A program made the position numbers and the translations under genes. DNA of 64,000 nucleotides from Actinomycetota bacterium (GTDB lineage: Bacteria > Actinomycetota > Coriobacteriia > Anaerosomatales > PHET01): NCBI GenBank assembly GCA_029265315.1, contig JAJUJM010000008.1, forward strand, positions 37,777 through 101,776. Reading direction: 5' to 3'. The notes below the pieces were generated by a model that had not been told where the DNA came from, made no database searches, and was given only the letters and a program-made list of their open reading frames with translations. Shown in pieces: positions 20,466-64,000 of this stretch. How positions within the stretch are numbered: position 1 is the stretch's first letter; every line of letters begins with the position of its first letter.

Positions 20466-20818
20466 GGGGGTGACTGGTTTCGACACGATAGCTTTGACGG
20501 AGGAAGCAGGCCGAGGTCTCCTCGCCTCGTTAAACAGGGGTGCAGACGCTCAAGCGTCGACAATGACTTTGCCCTCGCTGCCTAGATAGAGCAGCGACGC
20601 CAACCGGTACGCGTCCCCGGTACCGCGACGGCGCCATTCAAGGGGACTGCTGCGAAGGACGTGGGCGGTATGCCTCTCGCATAAGATCGAACCGCCTGGG
20701 CGTGAGCACGTGGGTCACCGCATGTCGCTCAAGCCGAGATGCCAAGCGGTGACTGAGCCTGGAGATGCCTCCCGGGGGGCTACCGTGGACATGGGTTCGA
20801 CTCCCATCACCTCCACCA
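20466..20818 (+). ncRNA. ssrA: tmRNA (SsrA)
   Basis: 5' GGGGGTGACTGGTTTCGAC pairs with 3' ...CACCTCCACCA, giving an acceptor stem with a G3:U70 wobble. T-arm GGGTTCGACTCCC. Internal tag frame ends ...GAC AAT GAC TTT GCC CTC GCT GCC TAG (..DNDFALAA*). Confidence 0.9.
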
Positions 20819-42085: not shown

Positions 42086-42162
42086 CGGGCTGTGGCGCAG
42101 CTTGGTAGCGCATCTGCTTTGGGAGCAGAGGGTCGCAGGTTCAAATCCTGTCAGCCCGACCA
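42086..42162 (+). tRNA. tRNA-Pro (TGG), CCA encoded
   Basis: Acceptor CGGGCTG/CAGCCCG. Anticodon arm TCTGC-TTTGGGA-GCAGA. T-arm GCAGGTTCAAATCCTGT. Confidence 0.9.
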
Positions 42163-42167
42163 CACGT

Positions 42168-42243
42168 GCGGCGGTAGTTCAATTGGTAGAGCATCAGCCT
42201 TCCAAGCTGATTGTTGCGGGTTCGAGTCCCGTCCGCCGCTCCA
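42168..42243 (+). tRNA. tRNA-Gly (TCC), CCA encoded
   Basis: Acceptor GCGGCGG/CCGCCGC. Anticodon loop CTTCCAA. T-arm CGGGTTCGAGTCCCG. Confidence 0.9.
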
Positions 42244-42339
42244 AAGATGATTCTCGGGCGCCCGATGGGCGGCCGATTGACAACAGCAGCTCGCCGACTG
42301 TACCGTAGCGCTTCGGCACTCTCGGGCGAGCGGACACAT

Positions 42340-42416
42340 GCGCCCGTAGCTCAGCTGGATAGAGCGGGAGACTTCTAATCTCTAGGTCGGGGGTTCGAAT
42401 CCCTCCGGGCGTGCCA
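42340..42416 (+). tRNA. tRNA-Arg (TCT), CCA encoded
   Basis: Acceptor GCGCCCG/CGGGCGT. D-arm AGCTCAGCTGGATAGAGC. Anticodon loop CTTCTAA. T-arm GGGGTTCGAATCCCT. Confidence 0.85.
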
Positions 42417-42424
42417 GGAAACAC

Positions 42425-42502
42425 GGTGGGTGTAGCTCAGTTGGTTAGAGCGTCGGACTGTGGCTCCGAAGGTCGCGGGTTCGAGTCCCGTTACCCACCC
42501 CA
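42425..42502 (+). tRNA. tRNA-His (GTG) with encoded G-1, CCA encoded
   Basis: An extra 5' G pairs with discriminator C. Anticodon loop CTGTGGC. T-arm CGGGTTCGAGTCCCG. Confidence 0.85.
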
Positions 42503-42547
42503 TTGATAATCCGCGGCGTCACATCGCGTCATCAGGGCGCCGAACAT

Positions 42548-42623
<76 letters not shown>

Positions 42624-42635
42624 TCATGACCATCC

Positions 42636-42666
42636 GAGAGCCGGTTCCCCAGAGGGGCCGGCTCTC
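42636..42666 (+). terminator. Long GC hairpin between tRNA-Lys and mntP
   Basis: GAGAGCCGG..CCCC-AGA-GGGG-CCGGCTCTC (9 + 4 bp). No U tract. Could end the tRNA operon or act on mntP. Confidence 0.3.
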
Positions 42667-42699
42667 GCGTGCGGGTGGTCTTCGCTTCTCGGAGGTGGA

Positions 42700-43260
42700 A
42701 TGGGTCTCGTCGAGCTGGTCGCCGTGGCCTTCGGTCTGGCGATGGATGCGTTCGCAGTGTCGGTGGGCAAGGGCCTCTCGGTCGGTCGTGCGCGTCCGGT
42801 CCACGCCCTCACGGTGGGCCTGTGGTTCGGTGGCTTCCAGATGCTCATGCCCCTGCTGGGTTTTCTTCTCGGGAGACGGTTCGGGCCGCTCATCACGGCG
42901 TACGACCACTGGGTCGCGTTCGGCCTGCTGGTGCTGATCGGCGCGCGCATGATCCGCGAGTCTCTGAACCACGAGGCCCCGTTGGACGCATCGTTCGCTC
43001 CCCGCGCGATGTTCCCGCTCGCGGTGGCCACCAGCATCGATGCACTGGCGGTTGGGGTCACGCTCGGCTTTCTGGAGGCGCCGATCGTGCACGCGGTCCT
43101 GCTCATCGGCGCGGTCACGTTCGTCGTGTCGGCCATCGGGCTCGCCGCAGGTGGTCGGCTCGGGGAGCGCTACAAGTCCCGAGCGGAGCTCGCGGGAGGG
43201 CTCATCCTCATCGCACTCGGGGTCAAGGTCGTCGTCGAGCACCTCGGGCTCGTGCCCTGA
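42700..43260 (+). CDS. mntP: Manganese efflux pump MntP
   Basis: Motifs LAMDAFAVS and, in the second half, SIDALAVG (duplicated DUF204 repeat). Six TM helices. Confidence 0.85.
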   Translation: MGLVELVAVAFGLAMDAFAVSVGKGLSVGRARPVHALTVGLWFGGFQMLMPLLGFLLGRRFGPLITAYDHWVAFGLLVLIGARMIRESLNHEAPLDASFAPRAMFPLAVATSIDALAVGVTLGFLEAPIVHAVLLIGAVTFVVSAIGLAAGGRLGERYKSRAELAGGLILIALGVKVVVEHLGLVP

Positions 43261-43282
43261 CGGCAGCTTCAGCTCATGAGTT

Positions 43283-43291
43283 TGGTATCAT
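43283..43291 (+). promoter_or_regulatory. Candidate extended -10 promoter TGGTATCAT for tRNA-Leu
   Basis: TGn plus TATCAT, 16 nt upstream of the tRNA-Leu 5' end. Confidence 0.3.
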
Positions 43292-43306
43292 GAACGCTTG
43301 TGTCAT

Positions 43307-43391
43307 GCGGGCGTGGCGGAACTGGCAGACGCGCTGGATTTAGGTTCCAGTGGGGAAACTCGTGGAGGTTCGAGTCCTCTCGCCCGCACCA
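43307..43391 (+). tRNA. tRNA-Leu (TAG), long variable arm, CCA encoded
   Basis: Acceptor GCGGGCG/CGCCCGC. Anticodon arm CTGGA-TTTAGGT-TCCAG. Variable arm GTGGGGAAACTCGT. T-arm GGAGGTTCGAGTCCTCT. Confidence 0.9.
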
Positions 43392-55288: not shown

Positions 55289-56344
55289 ATGATGACCCGC
55301 GAGACCGGAGCCGCGATCAGGCGCGAGGCCGACCGCCTGCTCGCCGAGGCGCTGAGGCGCCAGTGGGCGGCCATCCCCGGCCTCAAGGCGTCGTTCACGG
55401 ACGTGCAGGTCAAGAGCACCGAGGACGACATGCGCTACCACCTCATGTTCCTCGCGTCGGCATTGTGGGTGGGAAGCGAGGAGCTGTTCGCGGACTACGT
55501 GCGCTGGGTGGCCATCCTGTTCGACAATCTCCAGCTGCCGCGCATGTGGATCGTATCGAGCATGGAGTGCTGCCGGGGCGCCCTCGACGACGTCTTGCCC
55601 GCCCACCAAGCGGCGCTCGCAGACAGCTACCTCGACGTGGGGCTCGCCACGCTCGACGAGCCGCCCGCCGAGCTCGACACGCACCTCTCGCCAGACCAGC
55701 CCTACAGCGAGCTTGCCGTGCGCTACCTGGGGCACGTCCTCGGGGGCGAGCGGCACGAGGCGGTCGATCTCATCGACCAGTCGGCCCAAAGCGGCATGCG
55801 CATCGACGACATCTACCGCTGGGTGCTGCAGCCGGTACAGCTCGAGCTCGGGCGCCTGTGGCTCTCGAACCGCATCTCGGTCGCGCTCGAGCACTACGCG
55901 ACCGCGGTGACGCAGATGGCTATGTCGCGCCTGTACGGGAGGATGTTCACCGGCGAGCACACGGGGCGCCGTGTGGTGGCGGCGTGCATCGGCGGCGAGC
56001 TGCACGAGCTGGGCCTGCGCATGGTGGCCGACTTCCTCGAGATGGACGGCTGGGACTCGCACTACCTGGGGGCGAACACGCCGCTTGCCTCGATCGTCGA
56101 GACGGTGGCCGCGCTCGAGGCCGACCTCGTGGCGCTCTCGGCGACGATGAGCGTGTACGTGCCCGAGGTCGAGCAGGCCATCGCCGCGCTGCGCGCGGAC
56201 GAGCGCACGGCGAGCGCCCGGATCCTCGTGGGCGGCTACCCGTTCAACGTCGACCCGCGGATCTGGCAGGCCGTGGGCGCCGACGGCTCGGCGAAGGATG
56301 CCGACGAAGCGGTGCGCCTCGCATCCGAGCTGGTGGCGTCGTGA
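55289..56344 (+). CDS. Stand-alone CarH-like cobalamin (AdoB12) light-sensor module with a novel ~165 aa N-terminal domain
   Basis: Wx9EH (W 55859-55861, EH 55889-55894). ExHxxG (GELHELG, His codon 56003-56005), then exactly 41 aa to SAT and 28 aa to GG. No MerR DNA-binding domain. Confidence 0.75.
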   Translation: MMTRETGAAIRREADRLLAEALRRQWAAIPGLKASFTDVQVKSTEDDMRYHLMFLASALWVGSEELFADYVRWVAILFDNLQLPRMWIVSSMECCRGALDDVLPAHQAALADSYLDVGLATLDEPPAELDTHLSPDQPYSELAVRYLGHVLGGERHEAVDLIDQSAQSGMRIDDIYRWVLQPVQLELGRLWLSNRISVALEHYATAVTQMAMSRLYGRMFTGEHTGRRVVAACIGGELHELGLRMVADFLEMDGWDSHYLGANTPLASIVETVAALEADLVALSATMSVYVPEVEQAIAALRADERTASARILVGGYPFNVDPRIWQAVGADGSAKDADEAVRLASELVAS

Positions 56345-57684
56345 GCGGACGCCCCGGATTCGCGGTGTTCTGCAACGCCACTGGCGTCATCGAGGACGTG
56401 CTCGTGGACCGGGGCGGCCACGAGACGCCCCTGGGCCCCGGGGTGAGCCTCGCCGACGTGGTCGAACCTGACTCCCGCGGGAAGTTCCACGAATTCATCG
56501 TGCACGTGCGCACCGACCGGGCAGCGTTCGACTGGGAGCTCAACGTGCGCGCGTCGGGCGCGGTACACGCGATGCGCTTCTCCGGTGTGAAATCGCAGTT
56601 CGGGTGCCTCGTGATCGGCGTGAGCTCGGCCCGTGAGGTCGCGGACCTGGCCGACGAGTTCATCCAGATGAACAGCGAGCTTCTGAACACGATCCGCCAG
56701 CTGCGCAAGGAGGCCGCCGAACGCCCGGCCGTGAGCCTATCGCAGCTCGCCCGGATGAACAACGAGCTCACGAACCTGCAGCGCGAGCTCGCCAAACGCA
56801 ACGCCGAGCTCGAGCGCATGACGCGCTTCCGCGAGGCGGTGCTCGACACGCACCCGGACGTCGTCTACGTCTTCGAACTGGACCCGCCGCGCATCACGTA
56901 CGTGAACGGCCAGGTGGAGCGGGCGCTCGGCTGCTCGCGTCAGAGCGTGCTCGAACGCGGCGCGATCGCCGTGAACCCGGACGATGTGGCCGCCCGCAAC
57001 GAGGCCACGCGGCGCATCCGCGACGCCGCCGACGGCGAGGTCATCGTCTCCGAGGCACGGCTCAAGTGCGCGTGCGGCGACTGGTGCTGGTTCCGCTTCC
57101 ACGAGACCGTCTTCGCGAGGGCGGCCGACGGCACGGTGACGCAGGTGCTCGGCACCGCAGAGGACGTCACCGAGGAGCGCGTGATGCGCGAGCGGCTCCA
57201 GCAGCTCGCGCTCGTCGACGAGCTCACCGGGCTTTCCAACCGCCGCGGCTTCAGCGTGCTGTCCGAGCACGCGCTCGTGCAGGCCGAGCGCGCCGGCGCC
57301 GAGGTCGGGCTCGTGTACGTGGACGTCGACGGCTTGAAGGCGGTAAACGACGAGCTCGGTCACGCCGCCGGCGACGAGGCGCTCAAAGCCGTGGCGCGTC
57401 TGCTGCGCGAGACGATGCGCGCGTCAGACGTCGTGGCTCGCTGCGGGGGCGACGAGTTCCAGGTGCTCGCGATAGGCGATCCTGCGCTTGACCTCGAAGG
57501 GCTCGAGGCCCGCCTGCGAGCCGCCATCGATGCGTTCAACGCGTCCGTCGAACGGCCGTACCGGCTGTCCGTGAGCATCGGCGCGGTGCGCTGCGACCTG
57601 GCGGAGTCGTGTGACCTGGACGACTGGGTGACGAGGGCCGACGCGCGGATGTATGAGGAGAAGGCGCGCAAGAAGCGCCCCTGA
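56341..57684 (+). CDS. PAS - coiled coil - PAS - GGDEF diguanylate cyclase
   Basis: GTG 56341 overlaps the upstream stop (GTGA). GGDEF intact (RCGGDEFQVL) with RASD I-site. Track ORF 54916-57684 is an artefactual 5' extension of this frame. Confidence 0.85.
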   Translation: MSGRPGFAVFCNATGVIEDVLVDRGGHETPLGPGVSLADVVEPDSRGKFHEFIVHVRTDRAAFDWELNVRASGAVHAMRFSGVKSQFGCLVIGVSSAREVADLADEFIQMNSELLNTIRQLRKEAAERPAVSLSQLARMNNELTNLQRELAKRNAELERMTRFREAVLDTHPDVVYVFELDPPRITYVNGQVERALGCSRQSVLERGAIAVNPDDVAARNEATRRIRDAADGEVIVSEARLKCACGDWCWFRFHETVFARAADGTVTQVLGTAEDVTEERVMRERLQQLALVDELTGLSNRRGFSVLSEHALVQAERAGAEVGLVYVDVDGLKAVNDELGHAAGDEALKAVARLLRETMRASDVVARCGGDEFQVLAIGDPALDLEGLEARLRAAIDAFNASVERPYRLSVSIGAVRCDLAESCDLDDWVTRADARMYEEKARKKRP

Positions 57685-57712
57685 ACCTGCGCGCCGGCGC
57701 CTTGCGATCGCC

Positions 57713-57829
57713 TCACTCGTCCGCGACCGAGCAGACCTCCCACACGTGGCCCACGGGGTCGGGCGCTGACGTGGCCTGTTCCGGAGCGTGCTCCTCGCCG
57801 ACGATGGCTCCCGTCGGCCGGGCGCAGCC
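57713..57829 (-). pseudogene. Possible 3' remnant of a VOC/glyoxalase-family gene
   Basis: C-terminal peptide ...SAPDPVGHVWEVCSVADE* resembles the conserved DPxGHxWEI tail of VOC-family proteins. The N-terminal ~100 aa expected for the family are absent. Confidence 0.2.
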
Positions 57830-58070
57830 GATGGCCTTTTCAGCAATGGGACACAACCCCCTCATCGAAATGTGTGCGGTCTTGTGGGGTTTGCTCCCAA
57901 GGGGCGGGGGGTGTGGCTCAGCGGGCGCACAAGGAATCAAGAAGAAAAGCGGGGGGGGTACACACCGAATCCACAACCTCGCTCCACCATGTCAGACCTT
58001 TCCGCTACGATGAGTGTCGGCGCTGGCAGGGGGTTTGGCAGCGCTCCTTCTACCCCTCGGGAGGAACAAG

Positions 58071-61000
58071 ATGGGCGACACGGGCCTGCCGCGCCCCGGC
58101 ATGTTCGCGACGGTACGCAACCGTCGCGGGGTGATTGCCGCCGTCGAGCCGTTCGATGGCGAGGACGGCCGCGTGCACCTCGTTGAGCTCGACTACAAAG
58201 ACGACCAGCTCCCGGCCGCCGAGAAGCTCATCTGGGAGCTCGAGTTGCCGCACGCCAAGCTGCTCGAGCCGAACACGCTGCCCGACCCGTCGCGCTCGGC
58301 GCCGATGCCGGCCGAGGACTTCGATGCGCTCCTGCGCACGGCGCGCTGGACGAGCGCGATGCCGTTTCTGGACCCGGACGGGTCCGGTCCGCTCGAGCGC
58401 CTGCCGTTCCGCAGCCCGTTCCACGGTGCCGTCGAGGTCGACGACTACCAGCTCGTCCCGCTGCTCAAGGCGCTCAGGATGCCGCGCGTGAACCTGCTGA
58501 TCGCCGATGACGTGGGTATCGGCAAGACCGTCGAAGCCGGCCTCATCCTCTCCGAGCTCCTCATCCGCCGCCGCATCCAGCGCGTGCTCATCCTCACGCC
58601 GGCGTCGCTCAGGCTCCAGTGGCGAGACGAGATGTCCGAGAAGTTCTCGCTGCCCTTCGACCTCGTCGACCGCGCCGAGACGCAGGCGCTCAGGCGCCGC
58701 CTGGGGATGGACGCGAACCCGTGGCGCTCGTATGCGCGGGTCATCGCGTCGTACCACTACCTGCGCCAGCCCGACGTACTCGACCAGTTCATCGCTGCGT
58801 CGCGTCCCAAGGAGGGCTCGGCGCACCTGCCGTGGGACCTGCTCATCGTCGACGAGTGCCACAACCTCATGCCGTCGCCCTTCGGCGAGGACTCGGACCT
58901 CACGAAGATGCTGCGGCTCATCGCGCCGCTCTTCGAGCACCGGCTGTTCCTGTCGGCCACGCCGCACAACGGCCACACGCGCAGCTTCACGGGGCTGCTC
59001 GAGATCCTCGACCCGGTGCGCTTCAGCGTGACCGACGAGCTCAAGCCCGCCGAACGTGCCCGCGTCGAGCAGGTGGTGCTGCGGCGCCTCAAGTCCGAGA
59101 TCAACGCGCGTACGAACCCGCCGAAGTTCTGCACGCGCCTCGAGCCGATCACGCTCACGCTTACCGCGTCGGCGGCCGAGGAGGCCGCGCTCACGGAGGC
59201 GTTCGGCGAGTTCCGCGCCGCGATGCGCGCGTGGATCGCCGCCGGCGACCGCAAGCGCCGCCGGGCGGGAAGCTTCGCGGTCGAGATTCTGGGCAAGCGG
59301 TTGCTCTCGTGCCCGGTCGCGTTCGCGGAATCGTGGCGGCGCTGCCAAGAAGGGCTCGCGGAGGCCGAAGAGGCGAGTGAGTCTGAGGTCGACGCCGCCC
59401 GCAAGTCCGTCGAGCGCGAGACCGGCGACGACCGCGAGGCGCAGTCGCAGGAAGCCACGGCGGCCGGCATCGTGGGCGCGTGGCTCAAGAAGGCCGCGCC
59501 GCACATCCAGCATCAGATCGCAGCGATCGATGCGGCGGTCGCCCGGCTCGGCCTCGATGGGGCGTCGGCTGGCTCGTGCGCCGACGTCGACCCGGCGTCC
59601 GACTCGCGGCTCGATGCCCTCTTCGCGCTCATCGAGCAGCTGCTGCGCCGTGACGGCGTGTGGCGCGACGACGAGCGGCTCGTCGTGTTCACCGAGTACA
59701 AGACCACGCTCGACTACCTCGCGCGCCGGCTGCGCGAGCGCTACGAGCCCGAGCGCGTCCTCACGCTGTACGGCGGCATGGACGATGCCGAGCGCGACGC
59801 GGTGAAGCGCGCCTTCAACGACCCCGCCGAGCATGTCCGCATCCTCATCGGCACCGATGCGGCGTCAGAAGGACTGAACCTGCAGCGCACCGCTCGCTAC
59901 CTGCTCCACTACGACCTGCCGTGGAACCCGAGCAAGCTCGAGCAGCGCAACGGCCGCCTCGACCGCCACGGCCAGGCCCGCGACGTGCAGATCTTCCACT
60001 TCGGCTCTGACACCGACGACGACCTGAAGTTCCTCGCGCACGTCATGCGCAAGGCGAACAGCATCCGCGAGGACCTGGGTAGCGCGAACGAGCTCTTCGA
60101 CGAGGCCGCCCACCGCCGCCTCATCGACGGCGAGAGCGCCGCGACCGTGACGGACGACCTCGAGAAGCGCCTGCTCGTGAACCAGGGCCGCGCGCGCATC
60201 GACGCGGACGCGACGGTCGTCACCGGCGGTGAGGACGCTGCGGCCGCCGAGCAGCTCAACGCGCTCGCCGCCGAGCTCGACCTGGACCCGGACGCGATGC
60301 GCGAGACGCTCGAGGCGGCGCTCGCCATCCGCGCGGGGCGCCCGCAGCTGCAACCGTCGCCCGCAGAGCCCGAGACCTGGCGGCTGCTCAACCCCGATCT
60401 GGCTGGCTGGGCCGAGGTCGTCGACGAGAGCCTGCGCACCGACGCCGGGCGTGCGGGCAAAGGCGGGCTCAGGCGGCTCGCCTTCGACGGCGCGCCCTTC
60501 ATCGAGCGGGTAGGCGATCGCACCGTGTTCAATCCGCGTCCCGACGTGGCGATGATGCACCTGTCTCACCCGATGCTCGACCGCGCGTTCTCGCTGCTCT
60601 CGCGCCGCCGGTATGCGGCGACCGGCGAGGAGGTGAGCCGCTGGACGGTGCGCGTGGGCGGCGTGCCGCAGGACGCCGATGCGCTCGTGCTGCTCTCCGT
60701 CGAGGAGATTGGCGTGAACGAGCTGCGCGAGACGTTCCACCACTGGGTGCGCACGATCGCGCTCCCCGTGCGTGCAGGGCACCTAGGAGAAGCGCTGCCA
60801 CACGAGGCGGCGGCGCGCCTACGCGACGCGGCGCCCGCGAGCGATCCCGGAATCGTCGAGCGCGCCACAGAGGTCTTCGAGGACGTGCTGCCGGACCTGA
60901 AGGCGCTCATCACGCGGCACGCAGCCGAGCTCACCGCGACACTGCGCGGCGAGCTCACGGCGGCAGGCGAGCAGGCCCGCGCCGATGAGGAGAAGCGCTT

Positions 61001-61334
61001 CGCGAGCCGCGCAGGCGAGGTCTCCGCGCTCATCGCCGAGAACACGCTTTCCAAGCTCGAGCGCGAGATCGCCGCGCTCAAGGCGCGGCGCGCGCAGGGG
61101 GCGCTCTTCGACGAGGAGGCACGCCTGGAAGACCTCGACCGCTCCATCGAGGAGAAGCAAGCCGAGATAGAGCGCCGGCGCCGTCACTACGAGGAGGTCC
61201 GCGAGCAGCTCGAGCGAGAGCGCGAGCGCATCATCCGCCGCCTGCTGCCCAAGCGGCACGCGATGGCCGGCGAGGCGCACGTCTTCCCGGTGTGCGTCGA
61301 GGTCCGCCTGCCGGATTCCGGGGGTGCGCGATGA
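58071..61334 (+). CDS. SNF2-family helicase (DISARM DrmD-like) with C-terminal coiled coil
   Basis: ATG 58071 after GGGAGGAAC. Motif I DDVGIGKT (GKT 58521-58529), motif II DECH (58851-58862), LSATPHNG, helicase-C TDAASEGLNLQ...WNPSKLEQRNGRLDRHGQ. Confidence 0.85.
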   Translation: MGDTGLPRPGMFATVRNRRGVIAAVEPFDGEDGRVHLVELDYKDDQLPAAEKLIWELELPHAKLLEPNTLPDPSRSAPMPAEDFDALLRTARWTSAMPFLDPDGSGPLERLPFRSPFHGAVEVDDYQLVPLLKALRMPRVNLLIADDVGIGKTVEAGLILSELLIRRRIQRVLILTPASLRLQWRDEMSEKFSLPFDLVDRAETQALRRRLGMDANPWRSYARVIASYHYLRQPDVLDQFIAASRPKEGSAHLPWDLLIVDECHNLMPSPFGEDSDLTKMLRLIAPLFEHRLFLSATPHNGHTRSFTGLLEILDPVRFSVTDELKPAERARVEQVVLRRLKSEINARTNPPKFCTRLEPITLTLTASAAEEAALTEAFGEFRAAMRAWIAAGDRKRRRAGSFAVEILGKRLLSCPVAFAESWRRCQEGLAEAEEASESEVDAARKSVERETGDDREAQSQEATAAGIVGAWLKKAAPHIQHQIAAIDAAVARLGLDGASAGSCADVDPASDSRLDALFALIEQLLRRDGVWRDDERLVVFTEYKTTLDYLARRLRERYEPERVLTLYGGMDDAERDAVKRAFNDPAEHVRILIGTDAASEGLNLQRTARYLLHYDLPWNPSKLEQRNGRLDRHGQARDVQIFHFGSDTDDDLKFLAHVMRKANSIREDLGSANELFDEAAHRRLIDGESAATVTDDLEKRLLVNQGRARIDADATVVTGGEDAAAAEQLNALAAELDLDPDAMRETLEAALAIRAGRPQLQPSPAEPETWRLLNPDLAGWAEVVDESLRTDAGRAGKGGLRRLAFDGAPFIERVGDRTVFNPRPDVAMMHLSHPMLDRAFSLLSRRRYAATGEEVSRWTVRVGGVPQDADALVLLSVEEIGVNELRETFHHWVRTIALPVRAGHLGEALPHEAAARLRDAAPASDPGIVERATEVFEDVLPDLKALITRHAAELTATLRGELTAAGEQARADEEKRFASRAGEVSALIAENTLSKLEREIAALKARRAQGALFDEEARLEDLDRSIEEKQAEIERRRRHYEEVREQLERERERIIRRLLPKRHAMAGEAHVFPVCVEVRLPDSGGAR

Positions 61335-64000
61335 GCGCGCAGCAGCTGCCACTCGTCGGCACGCGCGCACCGGGCGCCTCGACGGGTGCCGCACCAGGCG
61401 CCGCGATCCCCGGCTGGGACCTGCTGCGCCACGGCGGCCTGCTCCTCGACCCGCAGCGCCTGCGCGAGGTCGCGGCCCACGAGCCGCCCGCGCTCGACGC
61501 CTACACGGAGCGCGAGCTGCGCAAGCGCCTCACCGCGCTGCTCGACGACACGGACGGCGCCGCCGACACTCCGGCGTTCGTCGCCTTCGTCCTCGAGCGG
61601 GTCTGCGGCTTCGGGCCGCACGCCGGCGGCGCGTGGGTGCGCGGGTCGGCCGTCGAGGCGAAGTACGGCCGGCGCGCGATCACCGGCGAGACGATCAAGC
61701 CGCAGCACCTGTGGCTGGGGCCGCGCGGCGGGATGCTGCCGGTCTTCATCGACCGCGAGAAGCGCGTGGGCGTGGGCCGGGGCCGGCGCACGGTGAGCAA
61801 CGTGCTGCAGTGGCTGCGCGCGAGCAACCGGCGCCTCGCGCTCGTCACCAACGGCCGCCAGTGGCGCCTCGTCTTCGCGGGGCTCGACTTCGAGGCGTTC
61901 GCTGAGGCCGACGCCGAGCTCTTCGTCGAGGAGGGCGGGCTCTCGGCCCAGCTCACCGGGGTGCGCACGCTGCTGCAGCCCGCACTCTGGACGCCGGCCG
62001 AAGAGGGCGCGACCCCTGCGCTGGAGCGGGCCATCCTCGACGCCCGCAAGGGCCAGGCCGAGCTCTCGGCTGTGCTCGGCGAGCGGGTGCGCGAGGCCGT
62101 CGAGGTGCTCGTGCAGGCGCACGGCGACCTGCTGGCCGAGCAGGCGGTAGGCCTCCCGCCGGCCGACATCTACCGCGCGGCGGTGCGCATCGTCATGCGC
62201 ATGGTGGTCGTGCTCTTCGCCGAGTCACGCGAGCTGCTCCCGTCCGACAATGCGCTCTACCACGCCTCGTACGGCCTGTCCGGCCTCATCGAGGAGCTGC
62301 AGAAGGTCCGCCACCGCTCATCGGGCCGCCTCAAGCGCAGCCACGCGGCGTGGCCGCGGGTGCTCTCACTCTTCCGCCTCGTGCACCAGGGCTCCGGTCA
62401 CGAGGCGCTCGCCGTGCCCGCCTACGGCGGCGAGCTGTTCGCGCCCGGCGATCCGGACGGCCCGGACCCGCTCTCCCGCGCGCTCGCCATCTTCGAGCGT
62501 GGCTGCTACGAGCGCGAGGCGGTATCTGACCGCGACGTCCACGACATGCTCGAGCTCATCACGCGCACGCGCGTGAAGATCCGCCAGGGCCGCAGCGCCA
62601 CCTGGGTGACCGCGCCCGTGGACTTCTCCGACCTGTCCAGCGAGTACATCGGCATCCTGTACGAGGGCCTGCTCGACTACGAGCTCAAGCAGGCGCCCGC
62701 AGACGACCCGGTGGTCTTCCTCAGCGTTGGCAACGCGCCCGCGCTGCCGCTCTCGCGCCTTGAGGCGATGGATGATGCAGCGATCCGCTCGCTGCTCGAG
62801 TCGATGAAGGCCGAAACGAGCTCAGAAGACGCCGGCGAGGACGAGGCCGAGCCCGCCGACGAGGCGCCCGACGCCGCGCCGGAGCCCGGCGACGAGGAGC
62901 TTCCCGAGGAGGTCGTCGCCGAAGACGAGCTCGACGCGGACCTGCTTGCCGCCGAGGACGCGCCCGCCGAGCGCGACAAGGCCCTCGACGCCCGCCAGAC
63001 GGCGCGCCTGCGCGCCGAGGAGTGGGCGCGGCGCGCCGTGCTCGCCGCCAAGCTCGTGCGAGCGCCGCGCGGTACGCTCACGCCCGAGAAGCAGCTCGCG
63101 CACGAGGCTGCGCTCGACGCCAAGGCGCGCCAGCTGCTCGATAAGCGCGGTGTCGTGCTGCCTGGTGAGTGGTACGTGGTGCGCTGGGGCGGCACGCGAA
63201 AGGGCGCTGGCACGTTCTATACGCGCCCCGGCCTCGCGGTGCCTACCGTGCAGCGTACGCTCCGTCCGCTCGCCTACGACCCGCCGACGCGCGAAGACGG
63301 CTCGCCGGACACGAGCGCGCCGCAAAGCGCCTGGACGCCCAAGCGCCCCGAAGACATCCTGGCGCTCAAGGTCTGCGACCCGGCGTGCGGCTCGGGCACC
63401 TTCCCGGTCGCGGCGCTGCGCTACCTCACCGACGCGCTCTACGAGTCGCTCATCCACCACGAGCGCGTGAGCGACGACACCACGCACGAGCGCGCCATCG
63501 TGCGCCTGATCGAGCCGCCGGAAGGCGAGGAGCTCCCTGAGGAGCGCCTCGCGCACGAGCTCGTGCCGTGCCGCACGACCGATGCCGAGTTCGAGCCGCG
63601 TCTGAAAGCGCTGCTTCGCCGCCACGTCGTGGAGCGCTGCATCTACGGCGTGGACCTCGACCCGCTCGCCGTCGAGCTTGCGCGGCTGTCGCTCTGGATC
63701 GAGACGATGGACCGCTCGCTGCCGTTCTCGTTCCTCGACCACAAGGTGAAGTGCGGCAACTCGCTTGTCGGCGCGTGGTTCGACACGTTCCGTCACTACC
63801 CCGTGATGGCGTTCAAGAACCGCGAGGGCGGCGACAAGGGGCACGCAAACGGCGTGCACTTCGCCAAGGACGCGCGCACGAAGGGGCTGAAGGAGTTCGC
63901 GTCAGGGCCGCTCAAGAGCGACCTTACGCGCTTCCTGTCCGGGCCGACGCTCTTCGACGCGCGCGACTTGGCCGCCGAAGCGACCACCGTCCACGACGAC
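61331..64000 (+). CDS. Large N6-adenine DNA methyltransferase (Eco57I/PglX/DrmMI-like), 3' end beyond window
   Basis: ATGA overlap with the SNF2 gene. I translated 890 codons by eye with no stop to the window end. The ORF is absent from the supplied track. SAM motif VCDPACGSGTF (63377-63397), YGVDLDPLAVELARLSLWIE, KCGNSLVG. Confidence 0.8.
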   Translation, partial: MSAQQLPLVGTRAPGASTGAAPGAAIPGWDLLRHGGLLLDPQRLREVAAHEPPALDAYTERELRKRLTALLDDTDGAADTPAFVAFVLERVCGFGPHAGGAWVRGSAVEAKYGRRAITGETIKPQHLWLGPRGGMLPVFIDREKRVGVGRGRRTVSNVLQWLRASNRRLALVTNGRQWRLVFAGLDFEAFAEADAELFVEEGGLSAQLTGVRTLLQPALWTPAEEGATPALERAILDARKGQAELSAVLGERVREAVEVLVQAHGDLLAEQAVGLPPADIYRAAVRIVMRMVVVLFAESRELLPSDNALYHASYGLSGLIEELQKVRHRSSGRLKRSHAAWPRVLSLFRLVHQGSGHEALAVPAYGGELFAPGDPDGPDPLSRALAIFERGCYEREAVSDRDVHDMLELITRTRVKIRQGRSATWVTAPVDFSDLSSEYIGILYEGLLDYELKQAPADDPVVFLSVGNAPALPLSRLEAMDDAAIRSLLESMKAETSSEDAGEDEAEPADEAPDAAPEPGDEELPEEVVAEDELDADLLAAEDAPAERDKALDARQTARLRAEEWARRAVLAAKLVRAPRGTLTPEKQLAHEAALDAKARQLLDKRGVVLPGEWYVVRWGGTRKGAGTFYTRPGLAVPTVQRTLRPLAYDPPTREDGSPDTSAPQSAWTPKRPEDILALKVCDPACGSGTFPVAALRYLTDALYESLIHHERVSDDTTHERAIVRLIEPPEGEELPEERLAHELVPCRTTDAEFEPRLKALLRRHVVERCIYGVDLDPLAVELARLSLWIETMDRSLPFSFLDHKVKCGNSLVGAWFDTFRHYPVMAFKNREGGDKGHANGVHFAKDARTKGLKEFASGPLKSDLTRFLSGPTLFDARDLAAEATTVHDD

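Follow-up and report, generated by a model that had tools for sequence, protein, structure and literature searches.

A coupled SNF2 helicase and giant adenine methylase gene pair in an Actinomycetota genome is a likely armA-armB pair of ARMADA type I

Introduction

The window analysed here, a 64,000-nucleotide stretch of contig JAJUJM010000008.1 from an Actinomycetota bacterium (assembly GCA_029265315.1), ends with a gene for a SNF2 helicase and, directly after it, a gene for a giant adenine methylase that is cut by the window end. To which defence system does this pair belong? A first-pass annotation, made from the DNA letters and a list of open reading frames (ORFs), took the pair for the 5' end of a DISARM class 1 locus, a reading that comes naturally, as the DrmD and DrmMI models now in use score on the two proteins. 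A second family now has to be considered. ARMADA, short for disARM-related Antiviral Defense Array, is defined by a helicase of the BrxHII/RapA kind, a methylase resembling PglX and a YprA-like helicase that ends in a Vsr nuclease; it is split into type I and type II, of which type II adds a GajB-like ArmD, and type I sometimes has a reversed order, reported mainly for archaea and cyanobacteria, in which the helicase-methylase pair precedes the YprA-like gene (Bell et al., bioRxiv 10.1101/2025.09.15.676423). As judged from their sequences, the two genes of the window are part of an anti-phage defence locus. We consider it likely that they are the armA-armB pair of an ARMADA type I system whose armC gene lies downstream of position 64000.

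Results

The helicase and methylase genes

The window is approximately 66% G+C and spurious ORFs are abundant in it. A filter on G+C at third codon positions (GC3) picks out two same-strand genes at the 3' end. Their domain content and their translational coupling can be read directly from the DNA, with the following features.

57685..58070, + strand: intergenic region between the PAS-GGDEF gene and the SNF2 gene, left border of the defence locus
58071..61334, + strand: armA/drmD-family gene, encoding a 1087-residue RapA-like SWI2/SNF2 ATPase-translocase whose long C-terminal extension is rich in coiled coils
61331..61334, + strand: ATGA, in which the helicase stop TGA overlaps the methylase start ATG (translational coupling)
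61331..64000, + strand: armB/drmMI-family gene, of whose expected 1750-1810 codons the first 890 are present, predicted giant gamma-class N6-adenine DNA methyltransferase, cut by the window end
61400..62005, + strand: restriction-endonuclease-like domain by AlphaFold2 and Foldseek, methylase residues 24-225 including LVTNGRQWRL
63371..63403, + strand: motif I VCDPACGSGTF, binding S-adenosylmethionine, with DPACGSG invariant or nearly so in 45 homologues
63644..63772, + strand: conserved Eco57I/MmeI-type methylase helix and loop (YGVDLDPLAVELARLSLWIE ... KCGNSLVG), Pfam Eco57I at residues 770-813, columns invariant

The mechanical ORF of the helicase spans 58014-61334 (+) from a GTG at 58014. 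An ATG at 58071 starts 6 nt after a Shine-Dalgarno sequence, GGGAGG (58059-58064), and gives the 1087-residue protein described in the first-pass annotation; no sigma-70 consensus promoter was found in 57685-58070. All the helicase motifs quoted there were located: DDVGIGKT at 58506-58529, DECH at 58851-58862, LSATPHNG at 58950-58973 and QRNGRLDRHGQ at 59943-59975. Pfam assigns SNF2-rel_dom (1.5e-14) and Helicase_C (1.5e-19). The PADLOC model DrmD (PDLC02621) matches the protein end to end with 676 bits, the NCBIfam equivalog NF038317 (DISARM_DrmD) scores 676.8 bits against a cut-off of 610, and the PADLOC BrxHII model scores 237 bits. The best solved relative is RapA (E 2e-32). Homologues are up to 95% identical, and public records call close ones DrmD. 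The protein is a BrxHII/RapA-like SWI2/SNF2 helicase, as ArmA of ARMADA type I is defined to be, and it is likewise a SNF2-like helicase ahead of a methylase, as DrmD of DISARM class 1 is.

Two side results concern the same gene. The PADLOC model PDLC02572, labelled 'DrmA', matches the SNF2 protein end to end at 491 bits and looks like a mislabelled DrmD-type model. ARAGORN called a 92-nt tRNA-Phe inside the gene at 58877-58968 (-), which is unsupported by Rfam at the gathering threshold and is probably a false positive.

The helicase gene ends in the ATGA overlap that had been noted earlier, and the same 4-nt overlap is present in several relatives (for example L005, L006 and L008). The second frame runs from 61331 to 64000 through 890 codons without a stop, in agreement with the first-pass translation, and its GC3 of 0.87 is typical for genes of the window; it is absent from the ORF list because it runs past the window end. 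The best PADLOC model is REase_MTase_IIG (665 bits), with DrmMI (PDLC02643) at 404 bits, and the Pfam families MmeI_Mtase and Eco57I are barely over threshold. The adenine-methylase motifs that had been reported are all present, with LVTNGRQWRL at 61841-61870, YGVDLDPLAVELARLSLWIE at 63644-63703 and KCGNSLVG at 63749-63772, and the proposed DrmMI/PglX-like family is supported by PADLOC and Pfam. Motif I is present too; the interval first given for it, 63377-63397, covers the DPACGSG core, and the full motif needed the wider coordinates listed above.

More than 600 homologues were returned at E <= 1e-20, and together with the PADLOC scores they put the finding well outside what chance could produce. 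A sequence search of the methylase against the PDB gave nothing significant. The frame is collinear with a 1803-residue protein of locus L047 at 76% identity, and full-length homologues have 1703-1865 residues. The second gene is, on this comparison, the N-terminal half of a predicted DrmMI/PglX-like adenine methylase of about 1750-1810 residues in full. Catalytic motif IV reads LGNPPW in full-length homologues, about 314 residues past motif I, and is near-invariant among the 45 homologues; the L047 protein carries NPPW. In the window methylase, motif IV is predicted to lie about 320 nt past position 64000. It had been placed beyond the window before, correctly as to position, and with the spelling NPPY, which the homologues do not have.

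An N-terminal endonuclease-like domain

Pfam gave no match in the N-terminal 570 residues of the methylase, and Foldseek with a model of all 890 residues returned E values of 0.28 or worse, so that the domain had to be searched on its own. For residues 24-225, AlphaFold2 with 44 homologues gave a confident model, with a pLDDT of 92.3 and a pTM of 0.89. With this domain, the top PDB match of Foldseek was the type IIL enzyme DrdV (E 1.5e-3, probability 1.0), followed at lower ranks by VRR_NUC, Cas4, BpuSI and HsdR fragments, all of which have PD-(D/E)xK nuclease folds. The label HsdR_N-like, given earlier to the segment around LVTNGRQWRL, is right at the level of the fold. Across the 45 homologues, residues 100-200 show neither a D...ExK pattern nor a lysine that is invariant or nearly so. 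Because of this lack we read the domain as degenerate, and it is probably non-catalytic. With DISARM DrmMI proteins the methylase shares some of its N-terminal part: over residues 162-455 the Nocardia protein aligns with 36% identity, and TNGEHW occurs in the Planktothrix one.

Related loci and the third gene

What follows the pair in its relatives? The loci surveyed came from species-representative genomes (19), from metagenomes (38) and from several contigs reached via protein look-ups, about 60 in all, and were processed by ORF calling, clustering and BLAST against reference proteins. The references for DrmA, DrmB and DrmC were taken from bona fide DISARM class 1 loci on Planktothrix and Nocardia plasmids, and the E. 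coli ARMADA reference was that of strain Sakai (NC_002695). Exact-protein look-ups with the SNF2 protein (from two alternative starts), the GGDEF protein and ThrS gave no match, an exact 51-mer taken at the window end was absent from the metagenome contigs, and the best relatives in the scan of species-representative contigs were 75-77% identical. A SNF2 gene lies immediately 5' of the methylase gene in 43 of 50 non-redundant loci. A third conserved gene, here called C2, is present in 16 of the 32 non-redundant loci that extend at least 5 kb past the methylase.

The C2 proteins have about 1800-1980 residues and carry the Pfam domains DEAD, Helicase_C and MZB (formerly DUF1998) at the positions at which E. 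coli ArmC has them. They are collinear with E. coli ArmC over about 1800 residues, and also with the YprA-like proteins of the three-gene loci of Natrinema and Thermus; against DrmA and DrmB they gave no significant match. At the C-terminus they share a Vsr/DUF559-type motif, T.PD ... [IV]YLDG.S..[IL]HG ... D..[IL]R..L...G[YW]EV[IF]E[IL], which aligns with the part of ArmC described by Bell et al. as an active Vsr nuclease. Motif alignment was used here since Pfam is blind to the Vsr domain even in E. coli ArmC, the positive control. The C-terminal nuclease has a weak REase_MTES_1575 match as well, and the best PADLOC matches of C2 are DruE models (348 bits).

The two closest relatives that are long enough to judge, L047 and L070, both with a SNF2 protein 82% identical to that of the window, both have C2/ArmC. 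In L047 (methylase 76%) the three genes form a compact trio, and methylase and C2 are 53 bp apart. The other is the Actinomycetota metagenome-assembled contig JAUXNU010000126.1 (L067/L070), with a methylase of 1773 residues and the order pheS-pheT, SNF2, methylase, 8.5 kb of cargo (a Mrr/AAA_16 protein, DUF3800, AbiEi and others), ArmC of 1979 residues, RecQ and an arg operon. C2 is also present in L010 (methylase 75%) and L033 (SNF2 73%). In L008, L011, L016, L017 and L046, C2 is followed by genes that are unrelated or lie on the other strand, and in L070 by RecQ. Three of the surveyed replicons or contigs appear in Table S1 of Bell et al. (bioRxiv 10.1101/2025.09.15.676423) with an 'ARMADA Type I helicase': Syntrophus buswellii CP175563.1 (L001), JAUXNU010000126.1 itself, and Parvivirga hydrogeniphila JAMCCO010000002.1 (L068, SNF2 74%).

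Unrelated defence or toxin-antitoxin cargo of 1.3-8.5 kb lies between methylase and ArmC in L001, L002, L005, L010, L033, L041, L048, L060, L061, L068 and L070, and its types include AbiEi/AbiEii, DarT-Macro (DarTG), Fic, DUF932, UvrD-like helicases, GmrSD and the Mrr/AAA_16 protein. Among the 97 non-C2 ORFs downstream of the methylase, the Pfam families include UvrD-like helicases, AAA_15/21 ATPases, AbiE, DarT/Macro, SIR2, HerA and DUF932.

A further domain was seen on the ArmC-like proteins. Of the 120 best ArmC-like homologues, 111 are longer than 1900 residues, typically about 1975. In one of them, P0243 (L070:10001-15940), residues 1835-1966 after the Vsr-like nuclease form a LexA/UmuD-type Peptidase_S24 domain (Pfam 27.8 bits, cut-off 23.3). 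Of the 111 long homologues, 110 have the S24 serine motif G-x-SMEP, and a LexA-like lysine motif, T-V-K-R-Y, is found in P0243, the protein in which the domain was checked. The words 'S24', 'LexA' and 'peptidase' are absent from the text of the ARMADA preprint (bioRxiv 10.1101/2025.09.15.676423). Going by these motifs, the S24 domain could exert a self-cleavage control over the ArmC effector, perhaps stimulated by RecA and single-stranded DNA.

Comparison with known systems

ARMADA type I shares with the window locus the RapA/BrxHII-like SNF2 protein and the giant PglX-like methylase, with NPPW in its homologues, and shares with the relatives the lack of a conserved adjacent ArmD and a YprA-like helicase to which DUF1998 and, at the C-terminus, one Vsr-type nuclease are fused; by definition, ArmC of type I is a YprA-clade helicase joined to OB-CON-DUF1998 and ending in such a nuclease. 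It differs in that the helicase-methylase-first order is seen here in Actinomycetota, Syntrophia, Planctomycetota and others, in that the window SNF2 protein scores as DISARM DrmD and ArmC is outside the window, and in that most ArmC homologues of the window lineage have the extra C-terminal LexA-like S24 domain. ARMADA type II of E. coli O157 (OI-172/SpLE6; PMC13463889) has the same armA-armB-armC order, NPPW and an ArmC collinear with C2, whereas identity is 23-28%. Its own features are ArmD (a GajB-like UvrD helicase with RelE), extra EEP and Vsr domains and an ArmC of 2113 residues, and no such conserved ArmD-like partner was seen in the relatives of the window locus.

DISARM class 1 (Ofir et al. 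2018; the Serratia system of bioRxiv 10.1101/2021.12.28.474362; Bravo et al. PMC9142583) likewise has a DrmD-family SNF2 protein followed by a DrmMI-family methylase, which in Planktothrix shows the N-terminal TNGxxW domain. In contrast, it has a separate DrmA helicase, a DrmB DUF1998 protein and a PLD-type DrmC. Its methylases have 1354-1533 residues and NPPF, as compared with about 1800 residues and NPPW in the homologues of the window methylase; identity is 31-38%, with DrmMI at 36-38% over part of the length in two proteins. NPPW is found in the window-methylase homologues and in four of four ARMADA ArmB examples, and NPPF in both of the two DISARM DrmMI examples. Druantia, which is placed in one clade with ARMADA (Bell et al., bioRxiv 10.1101/2025.09.15.676423), has in DruE a fused YprA-DUF1998 giant like C2; it has no SNF2-methylase pair, and type III DruE has PLD nuclease domains instead of Vsr. 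Type IIL/IIG enzymes (MmeI, DrdV, BpuSI) share the N-terminal endonuclease fold, a helical spacer and a gamma-class N6-adenine methylase with Eco57I/MmeI-type motifs, whereas the window methylase family lacks the conserved D...ExK, is about 700-800 residues longer and is paired with a SNF2 helicase.

Discussion

Weighing the ARMADA type I assignment

Several observations weigh against the assignment to ARMADA type I. The window stops inside armB and armC is not seen in it. By BLAST, the window SNF2 protein and methylase score 417 and 237 bits against DISARM class 1 DrmD and DrmMI, as compared with 150-249 and 71-167 bits against the ArmA and ArmB examples that were fetched, and are thus somewhat nearer to the DISARM proteins. 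Among the ARMADA types, experimental evidence is available for type II only (PMC13463889; bioRxiv 10.1101/2025.09.15.676423). In the survey, 16 of the 32 relatives had no C2 within about 7 kb downstream, and other genes stood there in some of them. Five loci (L012, L018, L035, L039 and L052) have in place of C2 a PDC-S68-like RecD-type helicase of 1229-1319 residues (1413 bits in L012, a PADLOC candidate), often with an AAA_21 ATPase between methylase and helicase. L007 has a 1108-residue NOV_C/Mrr-like protein and a UvrD-like helicase, in L069 (SNF2 78%) a UvrD-like helicase precedes an unrelated protein of more than 1200 residues, and in L020, a 70% relative, the methylase is split and unrelated genes for a ribosomally synthesized and post-translationally modified peptide come next.

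These neighbours raise the question of whether the pair might do without ArmC, either as a remnant or as a portable modification-and-translocase core with another effector, such as the RecD-type helicase, a UvrD-like helicase with a nuclease, or a Mrr-AAA protein. The missing C2 genes can often be understood as not yet reached, because ArmC of L070 sits 8.5 kb past the methylase, which is out of reach of most loci surveyed. The alternative neighbours, moreover, are typical independent defence genes (AbiE, DarTG, SIR2-HerA, Gabija-like) for which a partnership is not required, and every component of ARMADA type II is essential (PMC13463889). A pair that has no ArmC is, on balance, unlikely here. 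In a broader version of the same idea, self-marking and translocation would be the task of a portable core, made up of a DrmD-type SNF2 protein and a giant NPPW methylase, which would be joined by varied effectors (ArmC YprA-Vsr with or without S24, PDC-S68-like RecD-type helicases, or UvrD-like helicases with Mrr/NOV_C nucleases) and would tolerate several kilobases of nested defence cargo between its genes. That the window holds such a core with a non-ArmC partner, as an undescribed variant, appears a little less probable still.

Could the locus be a canonical DISARM class 1 system after all, with DrmD and DrmMI followed by separate DrmA, DrmB (DUF1998) and DrmC (PLD) genes? The DISARM_DrmD score above cut-off, the public name DrmD of close homologues, the PADLOC DrmD and DrmMI matches, the BLAST proximity given above and the drmD-methylase order, as in true class 1 loci, all speak for it. 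The three genes that the first-pass annotation expected downstream, however, were not found by BLAST in any of the approximately 60 loci, whose proteins are 46-82% identical to those of the window, and the 25 commonest Pfam families in the 97 non-C2 downstream ORFs include neither DUF1998 nor PLD. True class 1 DrmD proteins are 31-33% identical, and the methylases are 250-450 residues shorter and have NPPF, not NPPW. We regard class 1 as very improbable. Of the earlier reading, the defence locus and the DrmD-family and DrmMI-like assignments stand, and the class 1 identity is not supported; the close relatives carry a fused YprA-DUF1998-Vsr protein instead.

A BREX-type locus (PglX and BrxHII, followed by PglZ and BrxC) or a type IIG/IIL enzyme that is complete in itself and has a helicase as helper is hardly to be expected. 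The BREX matches are weak: PglX in PADLOC at 1.5e-7, BREX_1_MTaseX in NCBIfam at 28.6 bits against a cut-off of 500, BREX_6 at 29.9 against 900, and BrxHII at 237 bits. At family level the methylase does not pass as PglX, and the 25 commonest neighbour families include neither PglZ nor BrxC. An active IIG/IIL enzyme, to which the best PADLOC model REase_MTase_IIG and the DrdV-like fold point, is rejected by sequence conservation, as the putative nuclease domain has no conserved D...ExK lysine. The caveat attached to the first reading, that a BREX-like or a novel SNF2-methylase system might be present, failed in its BREX part and pointed the right way in the other.

Proposed mechanism

ARMADA type II has been shown to defend E. 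coli directly and in a non-abortive manner, and all four genes, the Walker motifs of ArmA and ArmC and the NPPW of ArmB are needed for this (PMC13463889). By analogy with the experiments on ARMADA type II, DISARM class 1 and BREX, we infer the following scheme for the ARMADA type I locus, including its methylation motif and its self/non-self logic. An armC gene for a protein of about 1800-2000 residues would be located past position 64000, either directly or after several kilobases of cargo, as the relatives suggest, and its product would combine a YprA-family DExH helicase, DUF1998 and a C-terminal Vsr-type nuclease. ArmB would methylate one adenine in a short, probably non-palindromic motif of the host and in this way mark self DNA; its degenerate N-terminal domain would more likely serve in DNA or partner binding than in cleavage. 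ArmA and ArmC, driven by ATP, would translocate on unmethylated DNA that enters the cell, or unwind it, and the Vsr nuclease of ArmC would then degrade this DNA, resulting in direct, non-abortive protection.

Genomic surroundings

The G+C content is 0.71-0.73 in the helicase and methylase genes as compared with 0.64-0.70 in the neighbours. The upstream genes have housekeeping and signalling functions: mntP, tig-clpP-clpX, valS, and genes for a FolC-like Mur ligase and a double-zinc-ribbon protein, and, nearer to the pair, thrS, an acyltransferase gene and a B12-binding protein gene that is translationally coupled to a PAS-GGDEF gene. No YprA-type helicase, integrase or tRNA flanks the pair in the window, and the nearest tRNA is about 14.7 kb away. 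An island border flanked by an integrase or a tRNA was ruled out by the character of the upstream genes and the distance of the tRNA. The defence locus therefore begins at about 57.7-58.07 kb and extends out of the window.

Some features of the surroundings are recorded in their own right. At 55289-57684 (+), a protein with a phycobilisome/globin-like N-terminal domain, B12-binding_2 and B12-binding is followed by a PAS-GGDEF diguanylate cyclase, and the stop of the former gene overlaps the start of the latter in GTGA at 56341-56344. The two may form a cobalamin-dependent, possibly light-responsive, sensor coupled to cyclic di-GMP signalling. A transfer-messenger RNA is located at 20466-20818 (+), with the tag peptide VDNDFALAA and an Rfam score of 140 bits. 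A cluster of six tRNA genes (Pro, Gly, Arg, His, Lys and Leu) occupies 42086-43391 (+). Its tRNA-Leu (43307-43391) runs across the GTG at 43350 that is the mechanical start of the trigger-factor ORF, and the true tig start therefore lies further downstream.

Significance

For a specialist the locus holds little surprise. It is an ordinary further instance of a recently described defence family, one more chromosomal case, in a high-GC Actinomycetota-like genome, of a family named in 2025, and no member of its type I has had an experimental test so far. It also carries a lesson for annotation. ARMADA-linked genes score with the NCBIfam model DISARM_DrmD and with the PADLOC models DrmD, DrmMI and REase_MTase_IIG alike, and therefore a DrmD and methylase pair alone does not indicate DISARM. 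What discriminates the two systems is the form of the YprA helicase, which is split and accompanied by a PLD nuclease in DISARM and fused with a Vsr nuclease in ARMADA. In the lineage of the window, outside the window itself, nested cargo defence genes often lie between armB and armC, and the S24 domain on most of the ArmC proteins is a possible lead to the regulation of the system.

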